64,000 nt of DNA from the NCBI RefSeq assembly GCF_035083965.1, contig NC_089740.1, positions 9,044,596-9,108,595 of the forward strand, read 5' to 3'. Position numbers and translations under genes: made by a program. Origin of the DNA: Branchiostoma lanceolatum. Taxonomy: Eukaryota. Positions 25,820 to 42,314 of the stretch are shown here, piece after piece. The first letter of the stretch is position 1. Each line of letters opens with the position of its first letter. The notes below the pieces were generated by a model, which did not search any database, was not told the origin of the DNA, and saw only the letters and a program-made list of their open reading frames with translations.

Positions 25820-26340
25820 TTCACGCGTATTCCTGTTTTCTCATTGTAGCCACAAGACCACTATAGACATGCCTTTTATATGGATTGAGTACATTAAACC
25901 AGTAAGCAAATCCTTTGAAACCTTCTTTGAGCCAACGATATCAAATTCACGTATTCATGTTTTCTCATTGTAGCCACAAGACCACTATAGATATAGCTCT
26001 TTTATGCATTGAGTGCATTGAACCTATAGGCAAATCCTTTGAAACCATCTTTGAGCCAAGGATATCAAATTCACGTATTCCTGTTTTGACAGTCTTTGAC
26101 AACTGAGTAATACTGTGCATTGAACTGTTTCAAAATTCACAGTAAGACTATCCTCCTAAATCCTTTGTCGCGACGAGCAAATCAAAGTCATATATTTCTG
26201 CTTTGTGATAATCCACACAAAGGAATAATCTATGGGTGCAGTTACGTGAAATAAACTGTCTCCAAATTCACTCTGAGTAAATCCCGTGAAACCCTACTTT
26301 GAGGCCAGCAAATCAAGTTCTTGCTATGTATTCTTGTTGT
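25820..26340. repeat. Degenerate tandem repeat, about 110-bp unit (…cacgtattcctgttttctcattgtagccacaagaccactatagatat…caaatcctttgaaacc…)
   Basis: Two near-identical units at 25830-25945 and 25945-26060, with diverged copies up to about 26340. Confidence 0.75.
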
Positions 26341-28132: not shown

Positions 28133-30310
28133 TGCATCGTTTCCAAGAAACATAGGAATAGACTTTTCACAAAATTCCTGCCCTTGTTACTTTGTATCTA
28201 TTGATTGCTCTGGTAGGTAGTTTGACACCGTTTCCCTCAATAACTAAAGCAGTTGGATTTCTTCCGATGGCATTGTTATGGATGAATTAGCTCGTTAAAA
28301 TCTATGATTGATTGCCCTTTCAATGATAGTCTAAAAGTCATTTATCATCGCAGACATGGATCACAAAAAGTGCTGAAGGTCTCTGACACAACACTTCGTT
28401 ATATTAGAAGCCCCCTCCCCCCAAGACACCCGACGCATTTTCACTAGGAGTCCTTTTCGCACCTTCCAATGCATCTCTACTCAACAGGGACGACACCTTT
28501 TGCTTTCACTATCCCATTGAAGGTCGTTTCATCAACCCCCGACATTTCAATAAGATTTTTTGCAGCACTTCACAAAATGTTAAAGTGTCTAGAGGATGGT
28601 AAGTAGGCGGCACTGTGGTGCTGTGGTTCGGAATATTGACTTAGAATCTAAAGGTTCTTAGTTTCAATCCCTAGCGGGCACGAAGGTTATGCAATTGGGA
28701 AAAGAACTTAGCACCTATTCCCACAGGTTAAGAGGCGTACCTGGCCCTGGTTAGAGACGTAATCTCGGATGGGACGCCAAGCTGGAGGTAACGTGTTTGA
28801 GTAGAGCAACATGACGAATCCACTACACTATTATTGAAAAGAGTAGGACGTGCTTGGATCAAACCTTACAGTCCGGTCTTACCTAGCTTGTTCTTCCTTA
28901 TTGTACAAAACTGGTGTTTTATGCCTTAAAGCAGATTTATTGATTATGCGAAAAAACAAATTAAACAAACAAACGTTTGCTCAATCTTCTGTAACAGTCT
29001 ATAGAATATGAGTAAACAGTGATACAAAAATCAGAAAAATTATATTAAGTTTGGGACTATAGGAATTAAGGAATTTCATTCAACAGATTAAAGATCGCGG
29101 ATTAGTATCAAATATATCAACTAACTAATGAACATATAACGACACATTTTTCATTTTGATTTTACGAGTGTCGCACAGACCACAGCGTAACCATCAACGC
29201 AAAAAAATAAATCACTCTCTTTCATATCGTCTCTTGTTTTGTCACTTTTATTGCTGTAACAAGCTTTCTCTTCCAGATTTTATGTGGCACGACAATCTAA
29301 ACCACCCGTGTTGAACTTTGAACCCCCGAGTGCTGTTTAATATTGGCGTGTGGGTGTCTGTATTTCCATGGAGTGCTGCAGGCGTTCGGTACAGTCAGTC
29401 TTAAGGGATTGTCTAAGTGCGAGAGGTTTGCCGAGTCAGCCATGTACTCTTGTTGCCAGAGGTGCCCGGAGAGCTCGTTAACAACAAACTCCTTCATCAA
29501 AACAGCAAACATTTTGACACCACTCTGTGGTAAAGTGCCTTACTGATGATTTAAAACCTTGACAAGCCCATATTTTGTTGGTTAAAGAAAGCCACGTTAT
29601 TAGAGAGCAGTGTTTCCATCGTGAAATTTGTTCTTTAGCCTGGTTGATATGATAAATAGGCACTAAGGATCAGCAGGCTTGTTAAAACTGCGACCTAAGG
29701 TGTGCGGGTCAGCTTTAGGACTCTACTCTGCTTAAAGTCAATGACCTACTTCTTTGTTGTTGAAATGAAAAGGAATTATTCACGCAACATTTTGACAGTG
29801 TTTTTTTTTAGGATTCACAAACATGAAAAGCCGAAAACGACCCAAGCATTTCTAGTTAGTCCCTTCCTGGAAAAAATTCTCACCTCTTCTTACAAATATA
29901 CTTGAAAGTGAAGTGACAATTTTATTACTTCTGATAAAAAAAGTAATAATAACATCGTTACTCCGCAGAGGGGTAAAGTGTATAGCCACCTACAACATTA
30001 ACAAAAGACGTACTTGGTGTTTTCCAAACGCCCGCGGGAGATTGAAACGGCGAAACCCTTTGATCACTTTGCGTCGTTCCAGCCTGTGATTGAAGGAAAT
30101 AACTGAAATCATAAATTCGCGTTTGTTGCAGGCGGATTTGTGAATATTCATATCTCCGATTAATAAGACGCGTAGCAAAGCTACCTTACATCGCGTCGCC
30201 GCCACCGCGGTTGGTTATTTAACATCCGCTCAAAATAAGCACACAGCCAGCCTGTACCACACAATCTCTCGCTGTCAGGGTCCTGTCAGACCGTCAGGCC
30301 AGTGCACAGC

Positions 30311-30447
30311 ATGGCGACAGTACGCTGCGTTCAGCTTCTGTGCGCGAGTCTAGTGATCTTTTGTACCGACAAGATCGTGGCAGGTGCCAGTGATGTCATC
30401 GGGGAGAAAGGCGGCTTGCCCACAGACTGTGCTGCTGTGAAAAGCGG
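30311..30447 (+). CDS. Fibrinogen-related-domain protein A, exon 1: MATVRCVQLLCASLVIFCTDKIVAGASDVIGEKGGLPTDCAAVKS(G), signal peptide
   Basis: ATG plus a hydrophobic signal peptide. Donor GG|gtgagt. Confidence 0.7.
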
Positions 30448-30494
30448 GTGAGTTTTATAGAAGCATTTAGAACTGTCGAGAATATTGATAACTA

Positions 30495-30665
30495 TGCGTG
30501 TCTCGGTGTCCACGTGTATGTGGATGTGTGTGTGTGTTTGTGTATTTGTGTGTGCGCGCGCGCGCGTGTGTGTGCGTATGTGTATGTTTGTTTATATGTA
30601 TGTATGTGTGAGTATCTGTGTGTGCGTGCGTGTGCATGTCTGTCTGTCTGTTTGTGTGTGTTTGT
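30495..30665. repeat. Imperfect (GT/GTGC/GTAT)n microsatellite in intron 1 of FReD gene A. The paralogous tract in gene B is at 33960-34100.
   Basis: gtgtatgtggatgtgtgtgtgtgtttgtgtatttgtgtgtgcgcgcgcgcgtgtgtgtgcgtatg... Confidence 0.85.
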
Positions 30666-30781
30666 ATTGAATCATTTATCATTATTTGTTCAGTCACGAA
30701 AATAAATTCGAACGTTATGATCTAGTCATATTGTAAACCGGGTCAACTTAATTACGACACCACTGTTCGCCTCTGTTTCAG

Positions 30782-30939
30782 GACTTGGAGCTACACCTTC
30801 CGCACACCTGCGGGTTTTCTGGCCGCGACGCATCTGCAGCGGCCCCGAGCCACCTGCGAGCAGCTGAAACAGCACCTGGAGACAGCCGGAGGGATGTTGG
30901 AACAGACCCAGATGGTCCTCGAACCTCCGGAGATGAAGG
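30782..30939 (+). CDS. FReD protein A exon 2: (G)TWSYTFRTPAGFLAATHLQRPRATCEQLKQHLETAGGMLEQTQMVLEPPEMK, linker
   Basis: Acceptor ctgtttcag| and donor G|gtagga. The frame is supported by paralogue comparison: 2 synonymous and 2 nonsynonymous differences against copy B in this frame. A longer antisense ORF overlaps this exon and is rejected. Confidence 0.6.
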
Positions 30940-31313
30940 GTAGGAAAGGCCAACATATCCTCCTGATGCAAGATAGACTCGTACTCTTACGGGCTAAAGC
31001 TAAAAAAGCTTGGATGCCAGGCTATGTACAAAGCTTTCATCATTTCAATAAAAGTGATTGTAGCACTCGTTTGATTACACCAAAAGTTAGGACCAAAATC
31101 ATATTTTTATTGAGCTATTTTATTGACAATCCTCACTATACAAACGCTTTATTTTATCTGGAAAGGGTGACGACGCACTGGTAAATTGTGTTCTAGATGT
31201 ATTTGATTGCTTATCTTTGCAATGTATAACGGCACCGTGGAAAAGGGTAGTACTCCTATAGTGTCATAGTGTTTAAGCTTGAAAGCTAACGTATTGATTG
31301 CTTTGTTCTCCAG

Positions 31314-31960
31314 ATTGCTCGGCCATTTTCCATTGGTTGAACGGGAAGGCCATAAGCGGCGTGTACAACATCCGCCCGGCGGGGGCAAACCGAACCGTCC
31401 CCGCCTACTGTCGCATGGCAGGTGGTGAAGGCTGGACCGTGCTACAGCGGCGTCAGGACGGCTCCGTCGACTTCTTCCGCACCTGGGCCGAGTACAAGCG
31501 CGCCTTCGGCGACCCGGCCACGGAGTTCTGGCTCGGCAACGACAACATCCACCTCCTGACCAACCAGGCTGGGTACAAGCTGAGGGTGGACTTGGAGACG
31601 TGTGACGGGAAAGCGACCTACGCCCAGTACAGGATCTTCTCCATCGCAGACGAAGCCTCGGCCTACAAGATGACGGAGGCGGCCGGCTACAGCGGAACCG
31701 CCGGCAACGCTTTCTTGCGACTCAAGGGTAATCCCTTTATCACAAGGGACAGGGACAGCAAGACCAAGATAGCCAGTAAGTTTAGAACCGCGGGGTGGCT
31801 ATACAGGTGGACTGTAGGCAACCTGAACGGCGAGTACTACACTCCGCAAACCGCGCCGACCAAAACCAAAGGGTTATCCGGAATGAGGTGGTACACGAAC
31901 AGATTTAAGTTCCCCTTAGTGAAGTTTGTTGAGATGAGGATCGCCCCTAACAATACATAA
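31314..31960 (+). CDS. FReD protein A exon 3: fibrinogen C-terminal globular domain (DCSAIFHWLNGKAISGVYNIRPAG...GWTVLQRRQDGSVDFFRTWAEYKRAFGDPATEFWLGNDNIHLLT...VEMRIAPNNT*)
   Basis: Acceptor tctccag| in phase 1. Classic FReD motifs are present: DCxxI start, GGGWTVxQRRxDGSxxF, EFWLGNDxIxxLT, NLNG and a C-terminal EM(R/K)I(A/R)P. The spliced protein is 313 aa. TAA stop at 31958-31960. Confidence 0.85.
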
Positions 31961-32984
31961 ATGTTGTTTCGAGATTTTTGACGTCAGGGTATGGTCACTT
32001 TCGTCATACGATTGGTTGACAACTACACTAAATCATGTTCGTAGACGTGTTGTACAACATGCAGCTGTCTTGTGAGGTTGTCGTGGATCCTTGTCAACGA
32101 CCGATTCTTTCACAGCTTTGCTGAAATTCTACGACAAAAACGACGAAAGTGACCGTGTACCTGTACCCTTTGCCTTCTGTAGTACAATGTATAGCCACAT
32201 TGTCACTTACAATCTGTTTTTACTAGAGGCTGCGACCATGCTGCGACCACTCAGCGACCAAAGATTTTACAGATAGCTCAACAAATTTCATGGATAAACT
32301 ACACATTTTCTGACATTTTGTGGGGTTTTACTGTCTGTTAAATTACCCATTTAAATCTTGCATCATATTCCACTATAAAATCAAGGTATACAAAAATCCA
32401 GTGTTGGTCGCTGTACCGTTGCTCAGCGATCGCGAAGAAGCAGAATATCCCTAGTAACTTCTAGAGTTTCAAATTTTTTTTTTTTTAGGGAGCTATCTGC
32501 ATACAGTGGCTACACTATGTAAATGAACGACCAGTATTTAGATGCTGGGAGAATGTTTCGCTACCGTATACACCGTTCTGCTTTGGTAGACTTCTTCATC
32601 ACGCACAAAGTGAAAGCGTTGTGGTAGACCAATTTACTTGGAAATTGGAAATATTTTTCTCTTGATGGCTAACATATTTCATGAGTAAATCCGTCCTGTG
32701 TTATTGCATTCCGTAGGTCTCAGACATAATGTGCTGTAGCACATCACAGAAACTGAAGTATTTAGAATTCTAATTGTTGTCGGGAGTATGCCTGATGTTT
32801 TCTGATATTAATCAGGATTACGTGAAAAAGTGTTCCCATGGCTTTCAGTCATTGTAACGCTAATATTGATATCAAGCATTGATAAAGATAAGGCACCTTG
32901 ATCATGATGAGTCAACTTGTTTCCGATGTGTTTACTTTGAATACAACTCACTGATCTACATGCGCTGGCATGAACATGTGCACA

Positions 32985-32995
32985 TGTGTGTGTGT

Positions 32996-33045
<50 letters not shown>

Positions 33046-33052
33046 ACGTGTG
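32985..33052. repeat. (GT)n microsatellite at the junction of the two FReD duplication units. The paralogous tract is at 36495-36585.
   Basis: Long perfect GT run. Confidence 0.9.
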
Positions 33053-33713
33053 TATTCTCGAAATTTGAGTTATGCCAATTGCTTACGAGCCGACTGCGAC
33101 CTGAGGTGTGCGGGTCAGCTTTAGGACTCTGCTCTGCTTAAAGTCAGCGACCTACTTCTTTGTTGTTGAAATGAAAAGGAATTATTCACGAAACATTTCG
33201 ACAGTGTTTTTTTTAGAATTCACAGACATGAAGAGCCGAAACTGGCGACGCAAGCATTTATAGTTAGTCCCTTCCTGGAAAAAATTCTCCCCTCTTCTTA
33301 CAAATACACTTGAGAGTGAAGTGACAACTTTATTACTTCTGATAAAAAAGTAATAATAACATCGTTACTCCGCAGAGGGGTAAAGTGTATAACCACCTAC
33401 AACATTAACAAAAGACGTACTTAGTGTTTTCCAAACGCCTGCGGGAGATTGAACGTAACCCTTTAATCATTTTGCTTCGTTCCAGCTTGTGATTGAAGGA
33501 AATAACTGAAATCATAAATTCGCGTTTGTTGCAGGTGGGTTCGTGCATATTCATATCTCCGATTAATAAGACGCGTAGCAAAGCTAGCTTACATCACGTC
33601 GCTGCCACCGCGGTTGTGTATTAAACATTACACACAGCTAGCCTGCGTCACACAAGCTCTCGCTGCCAGGGGCCGGTCGGTCGGCAGCTAAGGCCGTCGG
33701 GCCAGTGCACAGC

Positions 33714-33838
33714 ATGGCAACAGCACGCTGCGTCCAGTTTCTGTGCGTGAGTCTAGTGATCTTTTGTACCGGCAAGACCGTGGCAGGTGCCGGCGACGTC
33801 ATCGGGTGGTCTACAGACTGCGCTGCCGTGAAGAGCGG
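33714..33838 (+). CDS. FReD protein B, exon 1: MATARCVQFLCVSLVIFCTGKTVAGAGDVIGWSTDCAAVKS(G)
   Basis: Paralogue of the exon at 30311. It is 12 nt shorter. Donor GG|gtgagt. Confidence 0.7.
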
Positions 33839-34201
33839 GTGAGTTTTTGTCGAATTATTTAGAATGTGAACTAACTATGCGGAATATTGATAGAAGGGAA
33901 ATGGAAGACGATTGATTTTTACCTCTCCTGAGTGCCTGATACATTTATCATGGTACATTAAAGTGTGTGTGTGTGTGCGTGTGTTAGCGTGTGTATGTGT
34001 ATGTGTTAGCGTGTGTGTGTGTATGTGTGCGTGTGTGTGTGTGTGTTAGCGTTTGTGTGTGTGTGTGTATGTGTGTGTGCGTCTGTGTGTGCCTGTTTGT
34101 GCGTATAGTTATGTATCGTTATTTGTTAAGTCAATAAACTTAGTTCAAAAGTAAGGACTTGGTAATGTTGGTGACACTAGTAGTGTCCGCTTCTGTTTCA
34201 G

Positions 34202-34359
34202 GACCTGGAGCTACACCTTCCGCACACCTGCGGGTTTTCTGGCCGCGACGCACCTGCAGCGGCCCCGAGCCACCTGCGAGCAGCTGAAACAGCACCTGGA
34301 GACAGCCGGAGGGATGTTGGAACAGACCAAGAGGGTCCTCGAACCTCCGGAGATGAAGG
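34202..34359 (+). CDS. FReD protein B exon 2: (G)TWSYTFRTPAGFLAATHLQRPRATCEQLKQHLETAGGMLEQTKRVLEPPEMK
   Basis: Same splice sites as paralogue A. Confidence 0.6.
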
Positions 34360-34765
34360 GTAGGAAAGGCCAACATATCCTCCTGATTTAAGATAAACTC
34401 GTACCCAGCCTTCTTACGGGCTGTAGCTAAAAAAATGTCTGAATGCCAGGCTATGTACAAAGCTTTCATCATTTCAATAAAAGTGATTATAGCACTCGTT
34501 CGATTACGCATCTAGCATAGATGCAATTTCACCAAAAGTTAGGATCAAAATCATATTTTCATTGAGCTATATTATTGACAAGCCTCACTATACAAACGCT
34601 TTATTTTATCTGAAAAGGGTGACGACGCACTGGTAAATTGTGGTCTAGACGTATTTGATTGCTTATCTTTGCAATGTATAACGGCACCGTGGAAAAGAGT
34701 AGTACTCCTATAGTGTCATAGTGTTTAAGCTTAAAAGCTAACGTATTGATTGCTTTTTTCTCCAG

Positions 34766-35424
34766 ATTGCTCGGCCATTTTCCAGTGGTTGAACGGGAAG
34801 GCCATAAGCGGCGTGTACAACATCCGCCCGGCGGGGGCAAACCGAACCGTCCCCGCCTACTGTCGCATGGCAGGTGGTGAAGGCTGGACCGTGCTCCAGC
34901 GGCGTCAGGACGGCTCCGTCGACTTCTTCCGCACCTGGGCCGAGTACAAGCGCGGCTTCGGCGACCCGACCACGGAGTTCTGGCTCGGCAACGACAACAT
35001 CCACCTGCTGACCAACCAGGCTGAGTACAAGCTGAGGGTGGACTTGGAGACGTTTGACGGGAAAGCGACCTACGCCCAGTACAAGATCTTCTCCATCGCA
35101 GACGAAGCCTCGGCCTACAAGATGACGGAGGCGGCCGGCTACAGCGGAACCGCCGGCACCGCTTTCTTGCGACTCAAGGGTAAGCCCTTCATCACAAGGG
35201 ACAGGGACAGCAAGACCAAGATAGCCAGTAAGTTTAGAACCGCGGGGTGGCTATACACCTCGTATTCCGGCAACCTGAACGGTGTGTACCACACCCCGCA
35301 AACCGCGCCGACCAAAACCACCATGATCCTCGATGCTATCAGGTGGTCCCGAAGGAAAACATACGGATCTAAGTTCCGCTTACTGAAGTTTGTTGAGATG
35401 AGGATCGCACCTAACGTTACATAG
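34766..35424 (+). CDS. FReD protein B exon 3: fibrinogen C-terminal globular domain, with a divergent C-terminal about 50 aa (…AGWLYTSYSGNLNGVYHTPQTAPTKTTMILDAIRWSRRKTYGSKFRLLKFVEMRIAPNVT*)
   Basis: Acceptor tctccag|. The frame matches the ORF track (34750..35424). The spliced protein is 313 aa. Confidence 0.85.
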
Positions 35425-36525
35425 ATGTTGTTTCGAGATTTCTGAAGTCAGGGCATGGTCACCTTCGTCATACGATAGGTTGACAACTACGCTAAATTAT
35501 GGGCGTAGAGTTGTAGACATGTCGTACAACATGCAGCTGTCTTGTGAGGTTGTCGTGGACCCTTGTCAACGACCGATTCTTTCACAGCTTTGCTGAAATT
35601 CTACGACAAAAACGACGAAAGTGACCGTGTACCTGTACCCTTTGCCTTCTGTGGTACAATGTATAGCCACATTGTCATTTACACCCTGTTTTTACTAGAG
35701 GCTGCGACCTCGCTGCGACCGCTGAGCGACCGAAGATTTTACAGATAGCTCAACAAATTTCATGGATAAACTACAAATTTTCTGACATTTTGTGGGGTTT
35801 TGCTGTCTTTTAAATTACTTTACATCTTGCATCATATTCCAATTATGAAATCAAGGGATACACAAATCCAGTTTTGGTCGCTGTACCGTTGCTCAGCGAT
35901 CGCCGTAGAAGCTGAATATCCCTAGTAACTTCTAGGGTTTGAAAATGTTGTTCTCTTTTCTAAATTTTTTTTTTTAGAGAGCTATCTGACCACACTGTGT
36001 TCTATGTACGACCGGTATTTAGATGCTGGGAAATGTTTCGCTACCGTATACACCGTTCTGCTTTGGTAGACTTCTTCATCACGTACAAAGTGAAAGCGTT
36101 GTGGTAGACCAATTTACTTGGAAATTGGAAATATTTTTCTCTCCATCTTGCTTGATGGCTAACATATTTCATGAGTAAATCCGTCCTGTGTTATTGCATT
36201 CCGAAGGTCTCAGACATAATGTGCTTTAGCACATGACAGAAACTGAAGTGCTTGGAATTCTAATAGTTGTCGGGAGTATGCCTGATGTTTTCTGATATTA
36301 AACAGGATTACAGGAAAGACTGTCGGAGAAGTGTTGACTGTTGTAACGGGTGTGTTTCCATGGTTTTCAGTCATTGTAATGCTAATATTGATATCAAGCA
36401 TTAATAAAGATAAAGCACGCAGTGGAGTCAACTTGTTTCCGATGTGTTTACTTTGACTACCATTCACTGTGCTCGTATGACCATATCTGTGCGCATGTGC
36501 GTGTGTGGTTGTGCGTGTGTGTGTG

Positions 36526-36574
<49 letters not shown>

Positions 36575-37154
36575 ACGTGTGTATGCTCGAAATTTGAGTT
36601 ATGCCAATTGCTTACGAGCCGACGTTTCGGTGGCCGTCTGTCGCCTTTCTCTGGGCAATACTGACTGGTCCCATCCCACACTGCAGACTAGGTGTTGCTA
36701 ACAGTGCGGTCCCAAACGTTAAGTATTGTCATATATGCGGTTATCCAGTGATTTTTAAATCTCATTCACGGAATCAGCTTGGCTTTGCAATAAACAAACA
36801 AGCTGCTAGGGGGCCCAAACCTACACCACTTCTTCTTTACATTACAAGCTACCTGCCACCAAAAAATCAAGACCATAGCACGTCAAGGTCAAAGGATGAA
36901 AAAAAGGAAGTTCTGCTGCAATACCAAGGTCACATACTAGGGAGCCCAAAATCAACCTTGACCTTTATCTTCCCAACACTTACCCACATACCAAATGTCA
37001 TCATAATCCGCCCAGAGATTCTTGATTTATGCTGATTACAAAAATCCGGAAACACACACAAACAGACACACACGCCCAAAACTATATCTCCATTTTTATG
37101 GAGATAACAACAAGCGAGTCAAATAAACACAGTCACGTTGATGTTTTGACCCAC

Positions 37155-37346
37155 CGTGAGCACGTTGATGAGTTCCTTCTTGCTGACCGTCCCGTCGCTG
37201 TTCAGGTCGAAGATACAGAATGCCCACTTGAGTCTCTCCATGGGGGTTCCCCGCAGCATGGCGGACATGCCGCACAGAAACTCCCGGAAATCCACGCAGC
37301 CGCTCGCGTCGCGGTCAAACGTGTGGAAGATTCGTCTGGCCAGGAT
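37155..37346 (-). CDS. NCS-family EF-hand protein exon: ILARRIFHTFDRDASGCVDFREFLCGMSAMLRGTPMERLKWAFCIFDLNSDGTVSKKELINVLT (EF-hands 2 and 3)
   Basis: Minus strand. Acceptor attttacag| and donor ACG|gtgggt. Two canonical EF loops (DRDASGCVDFRE, DLNSDGTVSKKE) are spaced as in NCS proteins. Phase 0 at both ends, continuous with the flanking exons. Confidence 0.75.
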
Positions 37347-37419
37347 CTGTAAAATATCATGTATAAGTTAAAGGGTTAATGACCCACCCAAATTTGCTTA
37401 CACTGACATGATGCCTGGT

Positions 37420-37750
37420 CAGTGACCTATAACCACTGAATAAGCCACCGAGAGAGCGAAGCGATGCAACCCCAGGGTCATTGACCTGTTGCTAATGATA
37501 GTCTATGATCACCAAATAAATCCCCGAGCGAGTAAAGGGATAGAGACTGATCAATGCCTTGTAACCACCGCATCAACTACCGAGTGAATGAAGCGATAGA
37601 GACTGACCAGTGACTTGTAACCTGCGAATAAACTACCGAGTGAGCGAAGCGATATAGCCTGGTCAATGACCTATAACCAACGAATAAACCACCGAGCCAG
37701 CGAAGCGAAGACAGCCAGGTTACTGACCTATAACAATTCAATAAACTATA
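37420..37750. repeat. Minisatellite, about 62-bp unit x 5 (..aataaaccaccgagcgagcgaagcgatagagactgaccagtgacctataacc..)
   Basis: Direct repeat visible by eye. It lies immediately intron-side of the NCS exon at 37346. Confidence 0.8.
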
Positions 37751-39130
37751 TGATGATACTGGTTTGGCTGTGGAATCACATGTACAATAGGACTGTCTAC
37801 TAAGGGCCCGGTCACATTCATCGTAGGGTCATCATACGATCGCAAACTTGGTGTGTTCGTACATGTGTAGTACAAGATTCAGCTGTCATGCTATAGAAAA
37901 GGATGTCTAATATCCTTGCCCGTTGTTGCTTTGGTTCTGTCAGTCTGGTTGGAAACTCTACGGCATTGACATCGTGCATTTTATTGTACAACGACCTATG
38001 AAAATGTGACCGCACTCATATATCAATCATACATTCAAACCTAAACTTCCTATGAATTGCTTTTCCTTTCAAGACTTTCCCAGACATGTACGAGCAAAGC
38101 AGTTCCCCCGTACTCTCTGATAAGTAGCTCAAATGCCAAGAGGAAATGTTGCTTATAAAGAATTGCCTTTGGCAGGCGCACCGCGTGGAGACGTCTTTCA
38201 TCAAGGATACCTTAATCCCTGAACCTCGTCAGGGGCACACACATCCATCAACACTGCGTGCCCGGACTAACTATCCTGAACATCCTTCAACGTCTGTTAA
38301 CATGGGGACCAATTGACTTTTTGAGTTGGTTCGTTAACTGTTGAAGATTGCTGTAATCCAGAGGTCTAAAGGCTATGTGTACATCATGTGAAGACCGTTT
38401 TGTTTTGCGTGAACGGATTCAGTTCTATGTTCAACGTTTTGTTCATAAGTTAAGTTGGCAAATTCAGCGGGAGAAGTCCTTGTTTTCGATTTTTGTTGTT
38501 GTTATCATCTTACATTGATTATAGTTATGTATGTGCGATGGTCACCAAAAAAGTAAATAGATGAAATTATTGAACTAAACAAAATGGGTTCGTATTGGAC
38601 TTCGTTCAGTCATTTTAGTTGCATAAAATGTTTGGGTGCATGAAAGTTAAGAAAATATCAAATGCAAGTCGTATTCGGTGCAAAAGACATAATTATCACT
38701 GGTTTCTATCAAAGATTTTCTCTTATACTTGGCATGTTTTTATTGCAATTTACGATTAGAGACGGAAAGACTAGACGCTGACTCCATTGTTTTCCCCCTT
38801 TCATAATGACGTTCCGTGCCTGCTGTTAATCGATAAAGACGCCAAACCTTAAATCCTACTAAAGAAGCTAATACTTTGGAACTAAACCCTGGGACTTAGA
38901 AAACTCATGAATACATTTTATATATAGTGGAAGTATTAAGTGGTATTAGTGTTGAGCGTTTTCATGCCAATCACAGAATACTGTATCGCTTGCATATTCA
39001 AGGAAGTGTGACGATATGATACATGTAGTGGAGCCGGGCAGCAGTGACTGCCTTAAATACACAAAAGCAGACAGTCAACTCATACATCGTACACAACACA
39101 CAGCAATAACAGTCATGAAAAGCCCATTAG

Positions 39131-39450
39131 ATAAGATAGAATTGACAAGTCCAGAATAGAATTGAATGAGATAGAATAGAATAGATTGAAATGTATTGGA
39201 ATGAAATATAATGGAATGCAATGGAATGAGCTGGAATGAACTGGAATGAAATAAAATAGAAGAGGATGGAATGAAATAGAATAGAATAGAATAGAATAGA
39301 ATGGAATAGAATGGAATGGAATGGAATAGAATTGAATTGAATGAAGCGGAATGGAATGGAACGGAATAGAATAAAAATGGACTAGAACAGAATAGAGTGA
39401 AATAGAATAGAATAGAATAGAATACAGTAGATGTAGAATAGAATAGTTCA
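39131..39450. repeat. Pentameric satellite (GAATG/GAATA/ATAGA)n, a GGAAT-type simple satellite of about 320 bp
   Basis: Direct reading shows gaatagaatagaatggaatggaatgga... It lies in the 5.9-kb intron of the NCS gene. Confidence 0.9.
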
Positions 39451-42314
39451 GATATTTGATCTGAGCCTAATCTGCGAGCAAAAAGATGATCATATTGAAG
39501 TAGAACTGATGCTTCGTGATAATAGTTCACTTTTAATAAAGTATAGCTGCAGTACGAGATAAATCATCGTTGCACATAAAGTCTCCTGGTAACGTTGGGT
39601 AACATAAATTCGGGATTTTTCCGATAATGGTTGACTGAAATCAATCTAGCAGAACAATAAACCATCCTTTTTTTCTATAATTCTGTCAGTATCATGTACT
39701 ATCTTTGCACTAATCATATATATGGTAGATTTTGTCTCTAGTCGTGCTGACACCATAATATTTCAACTTGAAACTACCGTCCGCCGCACGCACAATAAAG
39801 GTGCTGTCGGACAGGGGGGCACATTAATTCGGGAGAGAAGATTCGTCTTGAATATCTTACCGCTAATCACATTTTATACAGCAGCTATTCGTTCCATCCT
39901 TGGCTTGAGGAGAGTGCTATGGATATAGACGTGTCCAAGTAAAAAAAATACACGAAAAAACGGCCGTACCGCACACATCAGGCCAGTTCGGGAACAACCC
40001 GTGTGTTGAGTCGGTAGAACTTCACTCAAAGTCGGCCCATCGTCATCATCGGGCAACGTGTAACGTTACATTATTCATGGGAAGTTAGCTGGATGCCGTA
40101 GCAATGGTAATACTACTTTGTCCATGTGTTCCTTGTTGTGTTAGGAGCAAACTTTGAGGAAAATATCTTCCTCAGTCCACTATCACACGCAGCATTTAGA
40201 CAAAAAAGTGTTCCTCACACACCTTTGTCGTCTGCTTGACAACAGGATTCTGGTTAACAATATGGCGGCGGGAAAATACACGTGCCGTAGGTTGTAGCAA
40301 CAGAGAGGAGTTTTGATGATTGATCACACTTAGAATCCAGTTGCAGGTTAGCAAAAGAGATTGTAATAAGTTGTCTTGTAAATAATTGTGTTGAGCAGGA
40401 ATCGGATGTGACATTTTTCTTATAAACCAGCCGACAACCATGTTGTTTAAGTCTCCCACGAAGTCCTCAGACTGTTCCAATAAGGGACGGAGAGTTTTTG
40501 ACCTCGTCGCCTTATAATCCATGCTTATCGAAGCTTTTCAGACAGTGTTCTGAATACGTAAGTCTGGCAGGTTTGCATTTCTAGCGGTATTACTTATGTT
40601 GCATCTAGCACATATCCCTAAATACCCCGTTTTCGAAAAATCCCGAATTTAAGTACCCCGCGAATTTAGGTTACCCAACGTTATATACCACAAACACACG
40701 CTTTTACCCATCATAACTCACTGTCGTCTAGAGGAGATATGAAGCAATATAAAATATATACCCCAATCCCGAAACTGTACGGAATATTAACACAATCGTT
40801 TCCATCGCTACAGATTGATGACGAATGAGATTTGATGGTGATCCCAGCGGTGAGATTATTATCCATGTAATATAACTATAATCCTTTGGTGTTAAGGCTG
40901 CGTTAGACACATATGATTGTAAACAGAATTCATCTTGTATGAGATTAACAGTGAAAGGTTACTTCGGTTCGTGGCAAGTAAAGACACGATCAGATATACA
41001 GATAAGCGTCTACACGACTTGAAAGTGGCGTATCTATTTTAAAGGTTAAGTGCCAAAATATATAAATCAGTGACGACGCTGGCTAAACATTGTATATTAA
41101 CATAATGGTTTTGAATGGATTTGTTGAGTAATACACATTTTACAGTTGCCGTTAAATTATTTTTATGGGGAAAAGTAGGCGGGTCTTGACCATTATTTTC
41201 TACAGTCCATTATAAGGGCCAGAGTTCCATGCATATGATGTATGAAAGTACGTAAGAATGGCGTACCTTAAGGGTACGTTTTAGGCCCACTATCAGTCAT
41301 GTATGTACATTAATGACTCCCTTGGTATACACCGAGTGGTCGAAAGAGGGTCTTAAATCTCCACTTTGCGCACTATTCAGGCGTCGAGAAAATCCATTAC
41401 TACAAGTTAAGGTTGAAGATCTTACCGAAGGTTGAAGAGCCGATACCCACCACTTACAATCTCGTCCTAGAGAGCAAAATGTCTATGGCGCAGAGAAAGC
41501 TTACCTTACACTATGCAGCTTCTCTACATTTGCCTTTACTAGTATATGGTGGCAGATGAAGGAATGGCTACTTTAAGTACATTGACAACATCGGGAGACA
41601 TTCAGGTAGTAAGATACGCATGGTAGCAGTTACGTATTCAGCAACTGGATAGATTTGTAAACGATCAGACCTTTCAGACAGCAGTCGCTGGCGAAATACC
41701 GCGGATTTTGTCTGAAACGTCTGACCATTTACAAAAAGTATTCAGTTGCTTGTCTTGGATAACTTTTGCATTGAGTTCTCTCCGTAACGGATAGCCTTCA
41801 TGAACGCTCAGGTGTCTAACGGACGCAATGAAGAAATAACGACTCTTGTGGGATCAGGATTCGGTAAAAACTACAGCCAATGATGGATCGTCTCCATAAG
41901 CAGTTTTGTCCATAACCGGCGCAGGAAGGGCGCAATGTTCCCAAAGAGGTAAATCTCTGGACCTTAATAGCTTTATTAAACCTTGGTGATGGATGAAGAA
42001 AGCGGGCTTTCAGTCCCTTACCGTCGCAACCGACAGGAGAGTTGCCTGCAGCAGTACAATCACCTCACCAAACTTTCCAAGGGATGTGGCGTTTTCTTAG
42101 GTTTGAACGATTCTCGTCCAAAAGATGTTGTTATTCTTTACTCATAACAGCATCGATGTGTCTTTGCCATCTTTGTCTTCTGTGGTTTTCATAAAAGACT
42201 TCTAGCACGTTGTGTGTAGCATTAAAAAAATGCTCCATTAATTGTTTCATAAGGTTGGTAGGCTATTCCAATTGGGAAATGAGTGCCCTGGGAACCAGGC
42301 TTGGAGATCGGGTC

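Follow-up and report, generated by a model that had tools for sequence, protein, structure and literature searches.

Gene conversion and replaced pocket-aligned loops in a tandem pair of amphioxus fibrinogen-related-domain genes

How can two neighbouring gene copies stay alike through an intron and most of their coding sequence and yet differ sharply over a few dozen codons near their ends? The question is raised by a tandem gene pair in the amphioxus Branchiostoma lanceolatum, found in a stretch of 64,000 nucleotides (assembly GCF_035083965.1, contig NC_089740.1, positions 9,044,596 to 9,108,595 of the forward strand), which we call the window and in which all coordinates are counted. Each copy encodes a fibrinogen-related domain (FReD); we refer to the copies as gene A (30311-31960) and gene B (33714-35424), and to the duplicated segments that contain them as units A and B. 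An initial annotation took the pair for recent duplicates in which the last 50 or so codons, in the putative ligand-binding region, had diverged under diversifying selection or through patchy gene conversion. Our analysis indicates ongoing gene conversion between A and B over much of the gene, and on balance we favour a conversion-homogenised pair in which selection protects a peak of divergence at the loops of the pocket.

The two tandem units of the initial annotation are borne out (Table 1), as are the FReD exon in each of them (Pfam PF00147, E about 1e-51) and the peptide strings that it quoted, which are exact. Its figure of about 95% for the identity of the units was too high: the whole-unit value is 90.1% in aligned columns and 83.7% with gaps counted. 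Identity reaches 97.5% in exon 2, 94.7% in intron 2 and 97.8% in the first 492 nt of exon 3; just past the segment ...FRTAGWLY it drops to 69.3% (A 31806-31919 against B, with a net length difference of 12 nt), and the final VEMRIAPN is kept in both copies. Divergence is not confined to the C terminus, as had been thought. Exon 1 is 87% identical and carries a 12-nt indel of its own at the mature N terminus, where gene A has the ancestral length, and intron 1 diverges more than any other part of the unit (68% identity, with many indels and unlike (GT)n-type arrays). The alleles of intron 1 are 96-99% identical; between the paralogues its non-repeat ends are 75-85% identical, and this divergence of 15-25% exceeds the 10% background. 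Along the unit, divergence is uneven and comes in three layers, near 1%, near 10% and above 15%. The excess in the C-terminal patch stands out even so: sites fixed between the paralogues are denser there than in the adjoining 3′ untranslated region (UTR; Fisher p=2e-7) and than in the 5′ flank together with exon 1 (p=2e-9), with 33 fixed sites in the 114-nt patch against 8 in the adjacent 148 nt.

A pattern of this kind could in principle be produced by a frameshift in one copy, or by two haplotypes misassembled in tandem, and the divergence between the paralogues is indeed of the same order as amphioxus heterozygosity (3.2-4.2%; PMC12500494). However, both genes have three exons, GT-AG introns and an unbroken reading frame of 313 codons, which rules out a frameshifted pseudogene for either; alignments out of frame do no better than shuffles, and it is the nucleotides themselves that differ. 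The window contains no Ns, and both genes recur in the same order at locus L001 of GCA_927797965.1, an independent assembly that comes from a different individual: CAH1251877 has an A-type C terminus and CAH1251876 a B-type one. The gene pair in that assembly, together with the shuffle tests, refutes the artefact, to which we attach next to no probability.

We aligned the four sequences, A and B from the window and A′ and B′ from the second assembly, and classed each variable site. Over a block of 949 nt that begins with exon 2, the paralogues differ at 3.6-6.3% of sites and the alleles at 3.6-5.2%, and nine sites are fixed between the copies; in the N-terminal part of exon 3, synonymous divergence (dS) spans 0.027-0.095 for the paralogues and 0.056-0.085 for the alleles. 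Between A 31082 and 31731 there are 0-1 fixed differences as against six polymorphisms common to both paralogues, at which either A and B agree and differ from A′ and B′, or A and B′ agree and differ from B and A′. Four of these six sites are non-CpG and three are transversions. Along the unit, fixed divergence alternates between about 1% and about 10%: fixed-type divergence of about 9-10% marks the 5′ flank, exon 1, A 31920-32070 and A 32172-32550, and the 3′ flank is homogenised again at 32071-32171 and 32551-32830. Mosaic divergence of this sort, combined with shared polymorphisms, is characteristic of conversion between copies, and we take the data to indicate ongoing A/B gene conversion over exon 2, intron 2 and exon 3 as far as codon 139. 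In amphioxus, most non-crossover tracts are shorter than 200 bp (PMC12500494). The initial annotation was thus right to bring in gene conversion, for which the A/B mosaic and the shared polymorphisms speak directly, but its 'recent duplicate' does not stand, since the identity of the rest of the gene is itself made by conversion, with paralogue divergence equal to allelic divergence.

The segment that lies beyond this block shows where the copies really part. Although the excess in the roughly 50-codon C terminus described in the initial annotation is real, the differences are not spread over most of its positions; they are gathered in three microblocks of 4, 7 and 8 codons (HV1, HV2 and HV3) set in a framework that is only about 8% diverged. 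Likewise, the 12-nt indel that had been noted is correct as a net figure, and a protein-guided alignment splits it into 3 nt and 9 nt. In the microblocks (15 alignable codons) the proportion of synonymous sites that differ (pS) is 0.65-0.67 and that of non-synonymous sites (pN) is 0.67, with 10 of the 15 third positions changed; in the framework of the patch (36 codons) pS is 0.12-0.16 and pN 0.07, matching the adjoining 3′ UTR. When A and B are aligned as nucleotides with free gaps, the blocks do not outscore shuffles in HV1 (p=0.30) or HV2 (p=0.34), and HV3 is only marginal (p=0.036). This shuffle-level similarity means that the blocks are replaced sequence, as opposed to identical nucleotides read in another frame. 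Their silent sites are saturated equally, which does not fit point substitution driven by selection on amino acids.

These values bear on ordinary diversifying selection, that is, on point substitutions selected in a young duplicate, which we regard as very improbable. The changes do lie at pocket positions, A has altered residues that are invariant elsewhere in its subfamily, and a McDonald–Kreitman-type (MK-type) contrast finds an excess of fixed replacements (non-synonymous to synonymous ratio 28.7:8.3 for fixed and 17:19 for polymorphic differences, p=0.008), which hints at adaptive fixation on the presumption that point changes are independent. However, the codon comparison that the initial annotation had called for gives an NG86 dN/dS of 0.67-0.87 over the patch, below 1; pS equals pN in the blocks, and selection on amino acids cannot saturate silent sites; and divergence elsewhere in the genes is low owing to conversion, not youth. 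Classical diversifying selection is therefore left unsupported.

To place the blocks on the protein, we considered the domain as a whole. Protein searches give their best matches in the genus Branchiostoma. The match to PF00147 (Fibrinogen_C) scores 173.8 bits for A and 177.3 bits for B (cut-off 22) and covers positions 3-220 of the 221 in the profile. An AlphaFold2 model of A is confident (pLDDT 92.9, pTM 0.91), with pLDDT falling to 81-83 in the microblocks alone, and Foldseek places this model at TM scores of 0.85-0.90 to tenascin-R, ficolins, angiopoietin-2 and FIBCD1. Both copies have the A-domain cysteines, Cys2 and Cys33 of the exon 3 peptide; in an alignment of 42 sequences the latter is invariant and the former present in at least 90%. 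Pocket positions were mapped through a phmmer alignment to FIBCD1 (4M7F), with residue roles taken from PMC3908420. By this alignment, all three microblocks would sit on elements that build the S1 pocket. HV1 aligns with Asn413-Cys414-His415-Thr416 of FIBCD1, which supply the cis-peptide, main-chain NH groups by which the acetyl oxygen is held and, in addition, one wall of the pocket (PMC3908420). HV2 covers Tyr431, Ala432, Asp433 and Gly434, and HV3 covers Ser438-Gly442, with Trp443 aligned to a conserved Lys codon just after it (31907-31909). The assignment of the divergent codons to the P domain in the initial annotation thus holds, as they align with S1 pocket elements of FIBCD1, tachylectin 5A (TL5A) and ficolins.

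The pocket so outlined is predicted to be atypical. The P-domain disulfide of FIBCD1 (Cys401-Cys414) is not kept in A or B, which have Ile at 401 and Trp (A) or Ser (B) at 414 in a region free of cysteine. At the Ca2+ site, which in FIBCD1 is made up of Asp393, Asp395 and the carbonyls of residues 397 and 399 (PMC3908420), the equivalent of Asp393 is kept, and a 3-residue deletion takes out the equivalents of Asp395 to Ser397. At the positions of Tyr405, His415, Tyr431, Ala432 and Trp443 (the last being Tyr in some of these lectins), read with a gapless alignment of the C terminus, A has Phe, Thr, Gly, Leu and Lys; B has Phe, Tyr, Ile and Leu at the first four, and its fifth is unassignable because of a 3-residue insertion. 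The missing disulfide and the 3-residue deletion in the Ca2+ loop are features of the whole amphioxus subfamily (the window copies and P0002-P0009), which also has a 7-residue Pro/Thr-rich insertion, TPQTAPT or TPQTVPT, after an NLNG.Y motif; judged by its residues, the subfamily would have an atypical FReD pocket throughout. Among nine subfamily proteins, variation and length changes are concentrated in the same P-domain loops. No collagen-like Gly-X-Y repeat occurs in the 94-98 N-terminal residues, and the full-length proteins match PF00147 only (E up to 1). Because they have no collagen-like region, the proteins are not ficolins despite the label 'FCN1', which, like 'TNR', is given in one annotation and reflects similarity only.

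Which copy changed, and when, can be read from related genes. On either side, the window is collinear with the corresponding locus of Branchiostoma floridae (L003), in which the pair is represented by one gene (P0005). In blastn, B. floridae DNA matches B through the stop codon, whereas its match with A stops at HV2. To assign polarity we took as outgroups four genes that come from two further species or hybrid assemblies; by this comparison A is derived at 11 of the fixed amino-acid differences and B at 6, and 6 are without an assigned direction. HV1 and HV2 of B share nucleotides with the outgroup genes, and at four positions where the subfamily is otherwise invariant A has a different residue (Tyr to Thr, Val to Glu, Asp to Ser and Arg to Asn). 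On these comparisons B keeps the ancestral loops, and most of the replacement took place in A. Given the single gene in B. floridae, the 15-25% divergence in the non-repeat parts of intron 1 and a dS of about 0.46 between the species, the duplication is lineage-specific, younger than the species split and older than a divergence of 2-5% suggests.

The depth of intron 1, beyond the 10% background, leaves some room for an alternative in which the blocks are the last remnants of an old duplication and everything else, including framework pieces of 8-48 nt, was homogenised later. The layering of divergence along the unit agrees with this, and so does the NG86 dS of the patch (0.41-0.54), which is near the between-species value. 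That dS is high because the saturated blocks contribute to it, and we rejected dating the patch back to the split of the species, as framework pS is so much lower and the same as in the adjacent 3′ UTR. With one gene at the collinear B. floridae locus, and with the nucleotides of HV1 and HV2 in B kept in common with the outgroups, which implies a burst in the A lineage and not a symmetric old divergence, we judge such an origin improbable.

A burst in one copy might also mean decay: A would then be a relaxed duplicate whose loops have drifted and whose scaffold has been repaired by conversion from B. The loss of the four subfamily-invariant residues is in keeping with this, as are the differences between individuals in the patch, which number two non-synonymous and one synonymous between A and A′ as against none and three between B and B′. 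Moreover, the exact protein of gene A is absent from a collection of 15 billion proteins, in which gene B is present as a RefSeq entry (XP_066270844.1, identical to the gene B protein); gene A may be unannotated or differently modelled in RefSeq. We nevertheless consider decay unlikely: every length change is in frame, two independent haplotypes, 4-6% apart, both have an undisrupted reading frame and splice sites, the blocks have diverged above the neutral background, the A model is annotated in GCA_927797965.1 (CAH1251877/P0122), and its predicted fold is confident.

The replaced blocks in A call for a source. It is possible, although we hold to it only tentatively, that at least HV2-HV3 came by short-tract ectopic conversion from a canonical-type FReD elsewhere in the genome; because this concerns only the origin of the blocks, it is compatible with their maintenance by selection. 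Silent sites are saturated, block edges are sharp, and one tract of about 45 nt, well within the usual length of amphioxus non-crossover tracts, would account for both length changes. A is alone in the subfamily in having the near-universal Gly434 and the canonical spacing from Trp437 to Met452 (found in 53 of 57 canonical FReDs). Its HV2-HV3 outscores that of B against 85 of 111 non-subfamily FReDs and is more canonical-like than the blocks of five other subfamily members; at the DNA level, against one canonical FReD (L006), the A block beats shuffles (p=0.006) and the B block does not (p=0.51). On the other side, the canonical likeness owes most to Gly, Met and the spacing and does not extend to HV1 (RWTV), and the subfamily insertion TPQTAPTKT is still present beside HV2 in A. 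No donor was found in the 64-kb window, where tblastn detects no third FReD copy, and phmmer with the A tail against 1.84 billion representatives returned no donor either, its matches being a subfamily representative and Pro/Thr-rich repeat proteins only. A small inversion or a nearby template for the A blocks was also ruled out: no k-mer of at least 12 nt from them recurs elsewhere in the window on either strand, and matches of 10-12 nt are at chance level (E at least 0.2).

Exchange over longer distances is suggested by two other members of the subfamily. P0003 (L004 11421-12080) and P0007 (L005 11769-12428) sit on separate chromosomes and show 84% identity across 2.5 kb, with only one synonymous and one non-synonymous difference in FReD codons 21-100, which suggests that scaffolds are homogenised between dispersed family members and lends some weight to an ectopic source for the A blocks. 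By virtue of this pair, scaffold homogenisation is not peculiar to the A/B locus. A bolder proposal would be a germline system of framework and hypervariable loops, in which scaffolds are homogenised among paralogues, even between chromosomes, and loops are rewritten as cassettes from other FReDs, the HV2-HV3 of A having come from a canonical-type donor; we think this distinctly unlikely.

We therefore return to a conversion-homogenised pair with a selected divergence peak, for which the following course of events can be proposed. A secreted-type FReD gene would have been duplicated in tandem in the B. lanceolatum lineage, and conversion between A and B would have kept their scaffolds alike over exon 2, intron 2, the A/B-domain part of the FReD exon and some blocks of the 3′ flank, with a C-terminal segment of 340 nt escaping homogenisation. 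In that segment, three loops of the canonical pocket would have been swapped wholesale as short blocks, with in-frame length changes and mostly in A, after which each loop type would have stayed constant between individuals. Most likely, A and B would recognise different ligands, and selection would remove conversion tracts that cross the loops. Of this, the duplication, the intact frames, the mosaic with its shared polymorphisms, the direction of change, the saturation of the blocks and their alignment with pocket positions are direct observations; protection of the loops by selection, as opposed to a mere homology barrier, expression of A and a difference in ligand specificity between the copies are inferred.

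Several points weigh against this account. Dense mismatches and indels can halt conversion tracts without any selection. The dN/dS of the patch is below 1, and the independence assumed by the MK-type contrast is violated by block replacement. All allele comparisons draw on two haplotypes per gene, one from the window and one from GCA_927797965.1, and the exact protein of A is missing from the large protein collection. In A as in B, the acetyl pocket is without its canonical residues and its disulfide and the Ca2+ loop is incomplete, so the label 'ligand-binding' derives from position alone.

Peaks of divergence maintained by selection under conversion have been described in theory (Innan 2003; Teshima and Innan 2008) and in exon 5 of the primate red/green opsins, among other gene pairs (reviewed in PMC3924837). 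Like the opsin case, the A/B pair consists of tandem paralogues homogenised by conversion, introns included, with a narrow island of fixed differences and shared polymorphisms outside it, and the island coincides by alignment with functional positions, those of the S1 pocket, whose role in this subfamily would be the corresponding one. It differs in that the island is made of three replaced blocks of 4-8 codons with indels and not of a few point substitutions, in that A and B are known from sequence and two haplotypes alone, and in that the sister species is single-copy, which leaves no orthologue test of long-term concerted evolution. FIBCD1, tachylectin 5A and the L- and M-ficolins, whose S1 site is described in PMC3908420, share with A and B the fold, PF00147, the A-domain disulfide and the NLNG motif, and the divergent blocks fall at the sequence positions of their S1 pocket walls; unlike these lectins, A and B are without Cys401-Cys414, the Asp395 equivalent, the canonical pocket residues and a collagen-like region, and have TPQTAPT.

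Tandem arrays in which indels and substitutions gather in P-domain loops on a conserved scaffold are a further point of likeness, this time to the FREP and FBG families, which have expanded in molluscs and amphioxus. In Anopheles and Drosophila, too, variation in these families is concentrated in the P domains of the FReDs (PMC1242226). In contrast to those families, A and B form one pair worked out nucleotide by nucleotide, in which conversion between the copies is directly evident and the changes are polarised. The Sp185/333 genes of sea urchins (PMC3091723) are likewise small, immune-type and closely linked, and microsatellites mark the edges of their duplicated segments; A and B have (TG)n near each unit end and within intron 1. 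The pair differs in that its junction lies about 50 nt outside the microsatellite and in that its genes have no element-mosaic structure. The A/B pattern thus matches divergence-peak and P-domain variation cases that are already known; what is unusual is that one copy has had three of its pocket loops swapped wholesale and that the pocket of the subfamily is non-canonical and lacks the disulfide.

The locus offers a compact and sharply bounded natural example, from a basal chordate, in which gene conversion and binding-site divergence coexist in a tandem pair of recognition-type genes, and its near-identical scaffolds with 19 differing loop codons make it a convenient pair for probing the ligand of disulfide-less FReDs. 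It also carries a caution, in that near-identical paralogues are not necessarily recent duplicates in highly heterozygous genomes. The current understanding of FReD proteins and of concerted evolution is unchanged.

Table 1. Coordinates in the window of the tandem units, the two genes, and the homogenised and divergent segments.
Feature	Position	Strand	Remarks
Tandem unit A	29687-33092	+	Ends ...GAGCCGA
Tandem unit B	33093-36623	+	Begins CTGCGACC
(TG)n in unit A	32977-33053		About 50 nt short of the end of unit A
(TG)n in unit B	36496-36572		
Gene A exon 1	30311-30447	+	Start codon, hydrophobic signal-like N terminus, mature N terminus ...SDVIGEKGGLPTDC; GT donor after
Gene A intron 1	30448-30781	+	Rich in (GT)n-like sequence; counterpart B intron 1, 33839-34201
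Gene A exon 2	30782-30939	+	Linker/coiled-coil-like, 52 codons
Gene A exon 3	31314-31960	+	Entire FReD, TAA stop
Gene B exon 1	33714-33838	+	12 nt shorter than gene A exon 1; ...GDVIGWSTDC
Gene B exon 2	34202-34359	+	
Gene B exon 3	34766-35424	+	FReD, TAG stop
Homogenised block in A	30782-31730	+	Exon 2, intron 2, exon 3 codons 1-139; partner in B 34202-35182
Shared polymorphisms in A	31198, 31305, 31411, 31555, 31570, 31670		
Non-homogenised segment in A	31731-32070	+	Partner in B 35183-35542; background divergence 8-10%; holds the three microblocks
HV1 in A	31805-31816	+	AGG TGG ACT GTA, RWTV
HV1 in B	35257-35268	+	ACC TCG TAT TCC, TSYS; ancestral-like, TCG TAT T.C common to outgroup genes
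HV2 in A	31868-31885	+	KG-LSGM; one codon shorter than B
HV2 in B	35320-35340	+	TMILDAI; ancestral-like, ..LD.I motif across the subfamily
HV3 in A	31892-31906	+	YTNRF---; three codons shorter than B
HV3 in B	35347-35370	+	SRRKTYGS; loop length variable across the whole subfamily

The exon models of both genes were guided by an annotated homologue (P0001). That both proteins have 313 residues is a coincidence, given the length changes in exon 1 and exon 3. At 31601-31603 the window allele of A encodes Cys (ETCDGK), and A′, B and B′ have Phe (ETFDGK); the unpaired cysteine is a singleton. The other individual differs from the window in two larger respects, having about 1.4 kb of extra sequence between the units (L001 7931-9637 against window 33043-33354) and an insertion of about 0.86 kb in intron 2 of B (L001 11034-11932 against window 34697-34739).

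Around the gene pair, a 124-nt tandem duplicate at 25826-26073 has a repeated counterpart in B. floridae (L003 259-1221), units of 56-57 nt form an array at 37524-37746, and an (AGAAT)n-type satellite lies at 39153-39446. Genes for EF-hand proteins follow downstream on the minus strand (37138-42021), with products of 306 amino acids in the other assembly (L001 14087-22617). These EF-hand neighbours are collinear with B. floridae, and one of their exons is 91% identical (37138-37358).

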